Assembly (NCBI GenBank): GCA_964385105.1
Contig: CAYLMU010000003.1
Coordinates: forward strand, 2,470-66,469
Direction of reading: 5' to 3'
Length of the DNA: 64,000 nt
DNA from: an uncultured Candidatus Saccharibacteria bacterium
GTDB lineage: Bacteria > Patescibacteriota > WWE3 > UBA101185 > UBA10185
Shown here: positions 55,381-58,987 of the stretch, piece after piece
Layout: each line of letters starts with the position of its first letter
Numbering within the stretch: position 1 is the first letter of the stretch
The notes under the pieces: generated by a model
What the model was told of the DNA's origin: nothing
The model's input: the letters and a program-made list of their open reading frames with translations, nothing else
The model's database searches: none
Translations under genes and position numbers: made by a program

Positions 55381-55425
55381 GAAAAACAATCTGCAGGCCT
55401 GAAAGGCCGAAGCCGTTTTTCGTAT
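55381..55425. repeat. 45-nt structured repeat, copy A, in the 23S-5S spacer (gaaaaacaatctgcaggcctgaaaggccgaagccgtttttcgtat).
   Basis: 44/45 identical to 58943-58987. Outer 7-bp stem GAAAAAC/GTTTTTC enclosing GGCCTTCGGCC-type inner hairpins. Confidence 0.7.
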
Positions 55426-56456
55426 CAGCATACGAAGCTGTACTCTAAAAACTGAACAAAACTTTGATTAAGCCCAATTACTAAAAGTCTTAATTTAAAG
55501 ATGCGCACACATTAGTACTGCTTAGCTAAACACATTACTGTGCGTACACTTGCAGCCTATCAACCTGGTAATCTCCCAGGAGGTACGTCCGATAAATCGG
55601 AAGAATTCTAATCTTGGGATGGGCTTCGTGCTTAGATGCTTTCAGCACTTATCCCGACCGAACGTAGCTACCCAGCGATGCCACTGGCGTGACAACTGGA
55701 ACACTAGAGGTTCGTCCGCTCCGGTCCTCTCGTACTAGGAACAGCCTCCCTCAGAATTCATACGCTCGTTGTGGAAAGAGACCGAACTGTCTTACGACGT
55801 TCTGAACCCATCTAACGCGCCTCTTTAATGGGCGAACAGCCCAACCCTTGGAACCTGCTTCAGCTCCAGGATGAGACGAGACGACATCGAGGTGCCAAAC
55901 ACCGCCGCCGCTATGAACGCTCGAGCGGTATTAGCCTGTTATCCCCGGGGTAACTTTTATCCGTTAAGTTCCGAGCTTACCATAAAGCATTCGGAAGATC
56001 ATTAAGACCTACTTTCGTAACTGCGCGACTTGTGTGTCTTGCAGTAAAGCTCCCATATACCTTTACGCTTACAGCGCCATTTCCATCGGCGCTAAGGGAA
56101 CCTTTGTGCTCCTGCGTTACTTTTTAGCAGGAAACCGCCCCAGTTAAACTGCCCATCAAGCATTGTCCTCGTACCCGATAAGGGCACACAGTAAGACTCA
56201 TAATATTAGAAGAGAGGTGTTACATTGGCGACTAGCTCACCTAAGCGAGCTAATCTCCCTCCTACGCTATACAACTAATATCACTTGTCAATGCCAGACT
56301 ACAGTAAAGCTCCACGGGGTCTATTTGTCCAACAACGAGTAACCGGCATCTTCACCGGTAGTTCAATTTCACCGAGTCCGTGATTAAGAGAGTGCTCAAG
56401 TCGTTACGCCTTTCGTGCGGGCCGGAACTTACCCGGCAAGGGATTACGCTTGTTAA

Positions 56457-57184
56457 TTCTTCATCTATATTAAATAGACTTTGAGTAACCTTCCCAGTGT
56501 TACTCCTGCATGTCGCCATGCAGACGCCACTATATCTTCATGCACTAGCATGTTTGGCGTATAGTGTGTGAGGATTCAAGAAACTTTGGAGTAACCTTAC
56601 GATTCATAAGACTACATAATAATGCAATCTCATGTATACCGTTAAAATTAAGGTGTTTCCTTTGTTCAATCAATTCCATAATTTCGCAGAATAATTGAAA
56701 ATCATTTTGCTTACTTGTTCTTAATTTGTGTGCCCTAAAAAAAGGTACTATTTTTGAATTAAGATCTGTAATGGATCTCACACAATAGCGATAAAGGTCT
56801 TCGTTGTGATTATCAAACCTTCTGTTTAAATATACTTTTCCACATCCAAAAAAGTTTTGGAAAATGTAAAGAACATTTTTACTCTTTGCTGATTGTGTGA
56901 CTATGAACTCTGGAAATACCTGCCAACCGGTTTTGCTCGTGGAGTTTTTTAGTATGCTTACTGTAAAAGCACCCTCCCCATCTACAAACCCAATTATCCA
57001 ACCAATGGTTTCTTGTCTTTCCTGCTGATTGTCCGCACTTGCTGCATTTTCACTCAACACATCCGAATATTATCCGAACATGTTAAGTAGCACAAGATTC
57101 TTTATTCTACTTTTAATAGACACTACCTTTTTTAGGTAGACGGAGTTTCCAGCATATAGCCAAATTTTACTATGGCGGCGCGAT
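56457..57184 (-). mobile_element. Group I-type intron in 23S rRNA (insertion near the E. coli 1917-1923 region, helix 69-71 area) carrying a homing-endonuclease ORF. Boundaries approximate.
   Basis: 23S exon homology (…ACGGCAGCAGTAACTATAACTGTTCTA) stops at ~57190 and resumes at ~56456 (CGTAATCCCTTGCCGGGTAAGTTCC…). An intervening ~730 nt contains a LAGLIDADG ORF. Confidence 0.6.
56545..57060 (-). CDS. LAGLIDADG-family homing endonuclease (single-motif type) encoded within the 23S intron.
   Basis: IGWIIGFVDGEGAF matches the LAGLIDADG motif. 171 aa, typical for homodimeric I-CreI-like enzymes. Confidence 0.8.
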   Translation of the reverse strand: MLSENAASADNQQERQETIGWIIGFVDGEGAFTVSILKNSTSKTGWQVFPEFIVTQSAKSKNVLYIFQNFFGCGKVYLNRRFDNHNEDLYRYCVRSITDLNSKIVPFFRAHKLRTSKQNDFQLFCEIMELIEQRKHLNFNGIHEIALLCSLMNRKVTPKFLESSHTIRQTC

Positions 57185-58942
57185 TCACCATAGAACAGTT
57201 ATAGTTACTGCTGCCGTTCACCCGAGCTTCGACCAAAAGCTCATTCACAATTGCACAAGTGCAAAAGTAAGATCACCTCCAGCTTTAACTTACGGGCACT
57301 GGGCAGGCGTCGGCCCCTATACATCCCCTTACGGGTTTAGCAGAGACCTGTGTTTTTGATAAACAGTCGCTTGAACCATTTTTGTGCCCCCTACGTATCT
57401 CTACGCAGGGCATCCTTTTCCCTAAGTTACGGATGTAATTTGCCTAGTTCCTCGATCACGGTTCTCTCGTTCGCCTTGGTATTCTCTACCTGTCTACCTG
57501 TGTCGGATTGCGGTACGGATATCATAGGATCTCCCTAGAAGATTTTCTTGGAAGCTTAACGCAGCTAAATCAGCGGTATTACCCGCTTTTCCACCGGCTC
57601 GTATAAACGCCTGTGCGGATTTGCCTACACAGACTGACTTGCCTTCTGGACTGGAATCCTTAACCAGCCTAGCCTATCAAACTCCGTCCCTCCATTGGTA
57701 ATAATGATCAAATGATAGTGCAGGAATATTAACCTGCTGTCCATCGGTTACGCCCTTCGGCCTCACCTTAGGACCGACTTACCCTCCGTTGACTGACATA
57801 GCGGAGGAAACCTTAGACTTCCGGCGGGGTGGGTTTTCACCACCCTCTCGTTACTCATGCCCACATTCTCACTTGATGCCGCTCCAGCATACCTCACGAT
57901 ACACCTTCAGTGCAGACATCAATGCTCCCCTACCATCCATTAAAATCTAAAAGAAATTAATGAATCCACAGCTTCGGTTCTTTGCTTTAGCCCCGTTAAA
58001 TCATCGGCGCGAAACCGTTGAACTAGTGAGCTGTTACGCTTTCTTTAAAGGGTGGCTGCTTCTAAGCCAACCTCCTAGCTGTCTAAACAGTTTCACTTCC
58101 TTACCCACTAAGCAAAGATTAGGGACCTTATCTGATGGTCCGGGTTGTTTCCCTCTCGTACCAGGAACTTGCTCCCTAGTACTGACTCCTAAGTTGAAGA
58201 TTTGCGCATTCGGAGTTTGGTAAGAATGGGTACGCTTGCGCGCCCCAATTCTTTTCAGTATCTCTACCTCACAAATCCATAATAACTTAGGGCTATACCT
58301 AAATATATTTCGGGGAGAGCCAGCTATCGCCGAGTTCGATAAGCGTTTCACCTCTTACCACAAGTCATCCCAGCATTTTTCCGCATACACGGGTTCGGTC
58401 CTCCGCCTGTCTTTCGACAGGTTTCAACCTGCTCATGGTAAGCTCACTCGGCTTCGGGTCTAATAACATATACTAAAGCGCCCTTTTAAGACTCGCTTTC
58501 GCTGCGTCTACACAACTGAGTTGCTTAAACTTGCATATGTTATTAACTCGCGGGCTCATTCTTCAATAGGCACAACATCACACCACAAGGGTGCTCTGTC
58601 AGCTTGTTTGCATACGGTTTCAGGTTCTATTTCACTCCCCTAACAGGGGTTCTTTTCACCTTTCCCTCACGGTACTTTGTTCACTATCGGTGTCCTCATG
58701 TATTTAGCCTTAGCTGATGGTCCAGCTGTATTCACACAGGGTTTCACGTGCCCCATGCTACTCTGGATAAACCCAAGAAGGCATTTTTGTTTCGAATACA
58801 GGGCTATTACCTGCTATGGCGCAGCTTTCCAGCTGGCTTCTTCTACAAAAATACTTTTTTACTTCTTTGTCATTCAAGATGACGTAGGGCTTTCCTAACC
58901 CCCTAATCTTAAAACTTTGTTTCAAAATATTTGTGCAATTAA

Positions 58943-58987
58943 GAAAAACAATCTGCAGGCCTAAAAGGCCGAAGCCGTTTTTCGTAT
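58943..58987. repeat. 45-nt structured repeat, copy B, inside the 23S rRNA domain I (candidate intervening sequence/expansion).
   Basis: gaaaaacaatctgcaggcctaaaaggccgaagccgtttttcgtat. Lies after the GAGTAGCGGCGAGCGAAAAGG...AGCCCAAACC block, where E. coli has no corresponding sequence. Confidence 0.7.

Follow-up and report, generated by a model that had tools for sequence, protein, structure and literature searches.

The window analysed here, a 64,000-nucleotide stretch of contig CAYLMU010000003.1 from an uncultured Candidatus Saccharibacteria bacterium, contains a tRNA-Ala(UGC)-23S-5S operon on its minus strand. Within this operon are three copies (A, B and C) of a short hairpin module: one in the 23S-5S spacer, one in an expansion of the 23S rRNA and one in the leader between tRNA-Ala and 23S. 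With moderate confidence, they are regarded as members of a spreading family of sequence-constrained hairpin-tip modules, similar in kind to the repetitive extragenic palindromes (REPs) or the Rickettsia palindromic elements (RPEs), which the rRNA operon has recently acquired.

Copies A and B are nearly identical. An earlier note on this DNA had reported such a repeat, and a repeat finder places it at 55376-55425 (copy A) and 58938-58987 (copy B) on the plus strand, with 48 of 50 positions matching. The 41-nucleotide (nt) cores, 55381-55421 and 58943-58983, have a single difference (G or A on the plus strand), which falls in the apical loop. Both match the core pattern, including its one R position, without a mismatch, and nothing comparable was detected in 100 shuffles. 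A covariance model of the module (R1), run on the window and on about 450 kb of related loci, detects copy A at 62.4 bits (E = 1.4e-12) and copy B at 60.9 bits (E = 3.2e-12). As the family consensus is on the plus strand in both cases, the rRNA transcript, which corresponds to the minus strand, contains its reverse complement.

In the rRNA sense, copies A and B each fold into a single hairpin (-14.8 kcal/mol, z about -3). The outer stem GAAAAAC/GUUUUUC described previously is present, but two added G-U pairs make it 9 bp long rather than 7 bp, and the GGCUUCGGCC inner hairpin that had been proposed occurs only as an alternative pairing and is not in the minimum-energy fold. When both copies are folded with their flanks, as the earlier note had suggested, the copy A hairpin extends on an 11-bp private outer stem, GUAUGCUGAUA/UAUCAGCAUAC. 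The full spacer hairpin with copy A at its tip occupies 55368..55433 on the minus strand (inverted repeat I8; -32 kcal/mol, z = -6.07; also present in the leader/trailer cofold, vide infra). It is located, as had been stated, inside the 256-nt 23S-5S spacer, and, in the 3' direction, begins 6 nt beyond the trailer strand of the processing helix for 23S.

Copy B is the apex of a hairpin in an expansion of domain I of the 23S rRNA, and stands on the stem of that expansion. The insertion was correctly described as lying just after GAGUAGCGGCGAGCGAA; its 92 nt take the place of a 5-nt loop in the Rfam LSU model, and it spans 58908..58999 (minus strand), after the GCGAGCGAA loop, at LSU model positions ~283-288 and after E. 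coli nt 275 (Rfam LSU and E. coli alignments, and the fold). The assignment of this site to the helix-9 region does not hold, as it maps after E. coli nt ~275. In the standard numbering of 23S, the hairpin at ~271-275 is helix 15, and helix 9 is near E. coli 131-148.

Copy C, which the earlier note overlooked, is a diverged UCC/GGA variant in the tRNA-Ala/23S leader (59359..59418, minus strand; inverted repeats I3/I4). It matches the pattern with 2 mismatches and R1 with 52.3 bits (E = 3.9e-10), and is oriented opposite to A and B, with the transcript in the consensus sense. Its end is followed, 8 nt further 3', by the leader strand of the processing helix, in which 59310..59350, containing the boxA-like CUUUGAAAACUGAACAAAAC, pairs with the trailer strand at 55439..55479 (both minus strand; inverted repeat I1, 41 nt, 80% complementary; cofold). 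This is the usual long processing helix and is separate from the module. A cofold of leader and trailer (59300-59440 with 55355-55491) retains the local hairpins of copy C and of the spacer copy, which flank the base of the processing helix in a mirrored arrangement; in the DNA, the 23S gene lies between inverted module copies. Pairing of C with A or B was also considered, but at -36.5 and -44.0 kcal/mol these duplexes show no clear advantage over separate hairpins (-46.0 and -40.2 kcal/mol).

Beyond A, B and C, R1 finds only one doubtful relic in the window, at 35721..35765 on the minus strand (16.2 bits, E = 0.21). In this sequence, core halves AAAACAATCTG and AGCCGTTT abut, with the apical part missing. 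They are part of the reading frame of a LysM/M23 peptidase gene (34994-36280), within its linker. Either a fourth copy may have left this sequence as a relic or footprint, or it is a chance match, for which a rough estimate is ~1e-4.

The three operon copies belong to a wider family, with the consensus 5'-AAAC AA UCY GCA GG[stem-loop]CC GA RGM C GUUU-3' and two variants, UCU...AGC (A and B) and UCC...GGA (C). Scans with the exact pattern, and with a relaxed pattern on one genome per species, detected 41 instances, in 8 metagenome and 33 genome stretches. About 38 of these show an apical stem and complementary arms, neither of which is demanded by the pattern, and the other three or so, which are inside open reading frames (ORFs) and have no apical stem, equal the number expected by chance. 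The outer arms vary from locus to locus while remaining complementary, and the apical stem-loop covaries. In a 34-sequence alignment, pair 13-51 is CG in 17 sequences, AU in 13 and GC in 2, with GU and UG also represented, and pair 22-43 is UA in 22 and CG in 12; neither pair is ever unpaired. The covariation score is 0.347 versus 0.137 for shuffles, with none of 500 as high and all slid controls lower. Some core columns are constant because they are fixed by the search pattern, but the covarying columns are not fixed. The exact patterns used in the collection scans underestimate the spread and diversity of the family and partly impose the constancy of the core; a first genome-collection pattern that required five A and five T was too strict (0 matches), and the relaxed pattern was used instead.

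In the related loci, R1 detects 54 copies, some of them in tandem arrays that repeat every ~90 nt and some as inverted pairs between convergent genes. A Eubacterium sp. UBA3782 metagenome-assembled genome (MAG) has at least 14 copies distributed over many contigs. The other hosts include several Lachnospiraceae and other Clostridia, Collinsella, a Coriobacteriaceae MAG, two Peribacteria MAGs, a Patescibacteria MAG and unclassified MAGs, and exact matches are found in about 15 of 185,579 species genomes. A 34-nt core cannot arise independently at dozens of loci, which implies that the element spreads by copying.

This family does not correspond to any in Rfam 15. A search of 55350-55450 at E <= 10 returned only a spurious lncRNA match, and no Rfam family overlaps the module in 26 related loci. 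There were 0 pattern matches in viral contigs and only chance-level partial matches for both core variants in PLSDB plasmids. A literal sequence search of the literature returned only primers with a PstI site, and a descriptive search returned nothing specific. The K-turn, sarcin-ricin/loop E, hammerhead and twister-sister motifs were compared by eye and provisionally rejected, with the required GA/AG or core nucleotides missing on either strand. The genes flanking the module do not include a recurrent family.

Comparison with relatives of the window organism bears on the age of the operon copies. Loci L051/L052, from a Nomurabacteria genome (S1 protein 75% identical, 23S 83-90%), and locus L045 (S1 67%, 23S 75%) share the gene order tRNA-Ala-23S-5S-S1-ClpB-RadA, with 23S-5S spacers of ~100 nt and ~75 nt, respectively. 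R1 has no match in these loci (E <= 1, filters off), and the module is missing at all three rRNA-operon sites. They do have a 90-100-nt expansion at the same 23S helix, of unrelated sequence. Since the relatives carry an expansion of similar length without the module, the expansion belongs to the clade as a whole, and the module probably capped it only recently. As far as these syntenic operons indicate, the modules do not represent a signal for rRNA processing that the lineage inherited or has in common with its relatives. The closest relative found, L048 (S1 89%), is uninformative, with a contig that starts inside 5S, and in L049 (S1 81%) synteny is broken. In L045, a run of N at 7578-7628 masks part of the 5S gene, which Rfam consequently misses.

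The module is also found inside protein-coding sequence. In the uvrC genes of two Patescibacteria-type MAGs (L015 and L026), it is in frame, within a segment of 66 amino acids where the solved Thermotoga maritima UvrC has 8. The patchy distribution across phyla, the multi-copy genomes, the positions inside uvrC and at an rRNA helix tip, and the relatives that have no module together point to an insertion-prone cassette of the REP/RPE type.

Nevertheless, the module is not simply junk, as its core is kept across genera at one orthologous locus, which indicates that the core is under selection. This site, the 3' untranslated region (UTR) of an aminoglycoside-phosphotransferase-family (Pfam APH) gene with conserved synteny, has the module in two Collinsella tanakaei strains, whose proteins are 98% identical, and in Enorma phocaeensis (79% protein identity). 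The core interior, GUCCUC...UGCGGA, is unchanged in all three. From one C. tanakaei strain to the other, the arms diverge by ~35%, and those of Enorma are different again, yet in each case the arms remain complementary, and the box changes from AAAC/GUUU to GAAC/GUUC with both sides altered. In two further relatives (protein identities of 92% and 85%), the same position is taken by long hairpins that differ from the module. In Candidatus Collinsella stercoripullorum (L056 and L057), another palindrome, CTGCGGGCTGATCGCGCCTTCGGCGCTCAGAAGCCCGCAG, occurs in tandem ~230-330 nt past the stop codon of the APH-family gene, with a layout similar to that of the module, consisting of an outer stem, an internal loop and an inner stem with a UUCG loop.

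A possible course of events can be proposed for the spreading hairpin-tip module. The consensus core, about 40 nt with conserved internal loops, caps a longer hairpin whose outer arms are private to the locus, and would spread between loci and genomes by copying or insertion, presumably at the DNA level, at the tips or centres of hairpins and palindromes. It would be kept constant most likely as the recognition site of a candidate trans-acting factor. The window lineage may recently have gained A and B, in the same orientation, on two length-tolerant helices, the helix-15 expansion and the spacer hairpin, either in a double acquisition or through a copying event between A and B at the two hairpin tips. 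Copy C would be an older, inverted acquisition in the leader. The effect of the copies on the transcript would be limited to lengthening existing helices, and they are expected to be neutral for the ribosome.

Several observations weigh against this proposal. No RAYT, insertion sequence transposase or reverse transcriptase was identified by Pfam among the 47 ORFs of the window, and the serine recombinase and Phage_CRI replication protein of its integrated element (vide infra) have no homologue in any module-bearing locus. No consistent target-site duplication was found, and the relatives examined, which are too diverged for boundaries to be set at the level of single bases, do not provide a clean pair of filled and empty sites. 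The earlier note had raised the idea of a small insertion copying itself within the operon. Of the two readings in that note, this one agrees better with the data, the family being dispersed and multi-copy in several phyla, A and B near-identical and the module missing from relatives, but a transposase, a target-site duplication and a clean empty site were not found. Furthermore, the window has only three copies and the doubtful relic in 64 kb, with the certain ones all in one operon, which fits a local function as well. That one orthologous locus keeps the core in different genera argues for a function at the level of the host more than for selfish DNA, and the orientation bias with respect to transcription, 36:9, is not predicted by a simple model of DNA transposition.

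That bias leads to the principal rival explanation, which is considered possible though rather doubtful: the module could be a hairpin signal that acts in RNA, in the 3'-UTR sense, as a site for an RNase III-type double-strand-specific nuclease or as a protein-binding stabiliser of 3' ends, placed after numerous genes and recruited to the rRNA operon. Such a signal would still need to spread by copying, but would exist for the sake of RNA processing or stability. Relative to the nearest stop codon, the majority orientation (36:9) places the reverse complement of the consensus in the mRNA, the sense expected for this signal, and in the rRNA this is also the orientation of A and B. Usually the hairpin starts 4-60 nt past the stop codon, often 4-30 nt. 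Many of the copies in low-GC Firmicutes are then followed by a run of T (T5-T7 in L029, L027 and L007, for example), giving the shape of an intrinsic terminator, although the U-run is missing from high-GC copies and from A and B in the window. In C. tanakaei (L037), the stop codon is followed first by the hairpin and then by a separate canonical terminator. Complete hairpins are 40-48 bp long, with energies from -60 to -130 kcal/mol, and in the transcript sense G-U pairs close the AA/C(C) loop to leave a nearly continuous helix. The position of hairpins C and A directly at the base of the leader/trailer helix, and the core conserved at an orthologous 3' UTR across genera, are likewise in keeping with a signal in RNA. 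The RNase III hairpins of phage T7 type, which have conserved asymmetric internal loops, occur between or after genes and may leave a protective 3' hairpin, are similar to the module in layout, with no similarity in sequence.

Other features are difficult to reconcile with an RNA signal. The rRNA operons of two syntenic relatives have no module, and cleavage of the in-frame uvrC copy would destroy the mRNA. Copy C is in the opposite sense, as is the copy at one Lachnospiraceae locus, represented by four near-identical assemblies (L003, L004, L005 and L020), where the module is in the consensus sense without long arms, 72 nt upstream of rimP in the operon rimP-nusA-ylxR-L7Ae-like-infB. This copy and copy C are both in leaders of operons for the transcription or translation machinery. 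The apical loops, too, belong to the other strand: on the non-transcript strand, 10 of 14 triloops are GNA and 10 of 18 tetraloops are GNNA, mostly C-G closed, and these are especially stable loop types in DNA hairpins. Folding energy does not distinguish the strands significantly (25 versus 15 hairpins, p = 0.2), and the counts of G-U pairs favour the transcript sense mainly through the core itself. Finally, the restriction of exact matches to so few species genomes does not favour a signal of this type.

It is unlikely that copy B is instead an intervening sequence (IVS) excised by RNase III, leaving the mature 23S fragmented in domain I, with copy A directing an equivalent cut in the spacer. 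Such a sequence would be a long hairpin, as the helix-15 insert is. A passage in PMC9297842, citing Brown 2015, describes insertions as very common in the 23S genes of the candidate phyla radiation (CPR) and most of them as predicted to be removed from transcripts, and the IVSs of Salmonella are excised by RNase III (PMC2672173). However, the site at E. coli ~275 is not among the known IVS helices, 9, 25 or 45 (the latter two in PMC2672173). The fold of the expansion (58895-59015, -33.4 kcal/mol, z = -3.3) consists of stems split by loops, with no uninterrupted duplex longer than ~9 bp and a 19-nt bulge on one side, and the equally long expansions of relatives without the module imply that the module is not what defines the expansion. 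A processing signal shared by the spacer and the 23S is further disfavoured by the separate canonical leader/trailer helix, and by the occurrence of the module mostly outside rRNA, after the stop codons of ordinary genes and in frame in uvrC. Copy B does resemble 23S IVSs in being an extra hairpin that replaces a helix tip and is sporadic among relatives. It differs in the helix concerned, and in that its sequence recurs in the leader and spacer of the operon and in mRNAs from other phyla.

A folded single-stranded DNA recombination site of the attC kind, read on the strand with the G...A loops (the template strand of the upstream gene), is very improbable: the layout is similar, with an imperfect hairpin, an outer AAC...GTT box, an asymmetric unpaired spacer, an inner box with extrahelical bases, a variable terminal stem-loop, the GNA or GNNA loops on one strand and an orientation-biased position just 3' of ORFs, but pairing continues 10-35 bp past the AAC/GTT box, the copies form no cassette arrays, being either dispersed or in identical tandem repeats, the neighbours are syntenic housekeeping genes, and no integrase is nearby (no intI, and the only recombinase of the window is in an unrelated integrated element). 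In both attC sites and the module, structure is more conserved than sequence, although the core sequence of the module is far more conserved than that of attC.

Among the known systems closest to the spreading hairpin-tip module are REPs and bacterial interspersed mosaic elements. These are also short imperfect palindromes, mostly at the 3' ends of genes or between convergent genes, single or in tandem clusters, often terminator-shaped, multi-copy in some genomes and co-opted into transcripts. In the related loci, the module is likewise a short, multi-copy, imperfect palindrome that is mostly extragenic and at 3' ends, whereas the window copies are all in the rRNA operon. REP families are lineage-specific and mobilised by RAYT, whereas the module core is common to several phyla and no RAYT gene was seen among the ORFs of the window; in the module, moreover, the centre is conserved and the arms are private to the locus, and it is found inside coding and rRNA genes as well. 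A GTAG of the REP GTAG/CGTC tag was seen by eye before the copy A hairpin only, and is missing at B, C and the other loci.

The RPEs of Rickettsia are palindromic insertions in frame in conserved protein genes, as the module is in uvrC, and in structural RNA genes, at length-tolerant positions; the module is correspondingly found in both kinds of gene, namely in uvrC and at the 23S helix-15 tip. No associated transposase is known for either. RPEs are 100-150 bp, conserved over their full length and found only in Rickettsia, whereas ~40 nt of the module is conserved, in Clostridia, Coriobacteriia and Patescibacteria, and no relationship between their sequences is expected. The module also differs from a miniature inverted-repeat transposable element, in which a direct target-site duplication surrounds conserved terminal inverted repeats: the flanks of the module are inverted, not direct (GCTG...CAGC at A and TGCA...TGCA at B), and the arms differ between copies.

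The palindromes around the core are also connected with the ends of genes. At L011, L014 and L016, the arms reach the final codons of the preceding gene, which recur in mirrored form beyond the hairpin, and this suggests an inverted duplication of the gene end around the core. At L011, a perfect 22-nt copy of coding sequence (872-893) is mirrored past the hairpin (1008-1029). Tentatively, the module may thus represent a previously undescribed class of element, in which a ~40-nt core seeds long palindromes right after genes and forms their centre, sometimes mirroring their last codons. It would be read strand-specifically, either as folded DNA with GNA/GNNA loops or as the RNA complement, by a putative enzyme common to Clostridia, Coriobacteriia and Patescibacteria, and could invade rRNA helices and coding sequences.

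The operon itself begins with the tRNA-Ala(UGC) gene (59513..59589; ARAGORN and Rfam), followed by a 3809-nt 23S gene (55492..59300; Rfam RF02541, 2429.5 bits; insertion map) and a 5S gene (55122..55235; RF00001, 84.3 bits), all on the minus strand; no 16S gene was found in the window with Rfam or ARAGORN. The extra length of the 23S relative to E. coli results from a 145-nt insertion after nt 275 and a 736-nt insertion after nt 1931 (E. coli alignment). The latter (56451-57186, minus strand) has a group I intron signature (Intron_gpI, 39.9 bits, E = 1.4e-8, against a gathering score of 50) and encloses an ORF for a 171-residue LAGLIDADG_1 homing endonuclease (56545-57060); the intron is also present in L045 but missing from L051. 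The 23S-5S spacer has a second large hairpin at 55260-55358 (arms of 38 nt, 74% complementary), which is unrelated to the module; the relatives, with their short spacers, have no equivalent of it.

For the related loci, genes were called only as crude ORFs. In the window, the genes include those for S1, a ClpB-like protein, RadA, ComEC/ComEA/DprA and sortases. Together with a 2707-residue surface protein, this set suggests an organism of the Patescibacteria/CPR close to Nomurabacteria, and the best named homologue of S1 agrees with that position. A natural-competence cluster at 28223-32959 comprises ComEC (Competence domain), a ComEA-like HHH_3 protein, a ComM-like Mg-chelatase ATPase and DprA, and a 2707-residue ORF with eight Laminin_G_3 (concanavalin-like lectin) repeats (202-8325) probably encodes a giant surface protein. 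The integrated element (18406-23000, GC ~0.32) is beside tRNA-Arg(CCU) and tRNA-Ser(UGA). It has genes for a 588-residue large serine recombinase (18575-20341) and a Phage_CRI/G2P-type rolling-circle replication protein (20550-21638), both on the minus strand, and resembles the remnant of an inovirus-like element or rolling-circle plasmid in a CPR genome.

For the window organism, these results remove the idea of a lineage-wide rRNA processing signal; instead, a CPR 23S expansion segment and a spacer hairpin may have been recently capped by one imported cassette. More broadly, they expose a structured element with a cross-phylum core, hypervariable but compensated arms, an orientation bias relative to genes and no entry in Rfam. 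With the covariance model and seed alignment, the family can be tested directly against complete databases. A factor reading the core, if identified, would explain how these hairpins spread, why they are sited at stop codons, and whether they have a part in shaping mRNA ends, rRNA expansions or genome palindromes.

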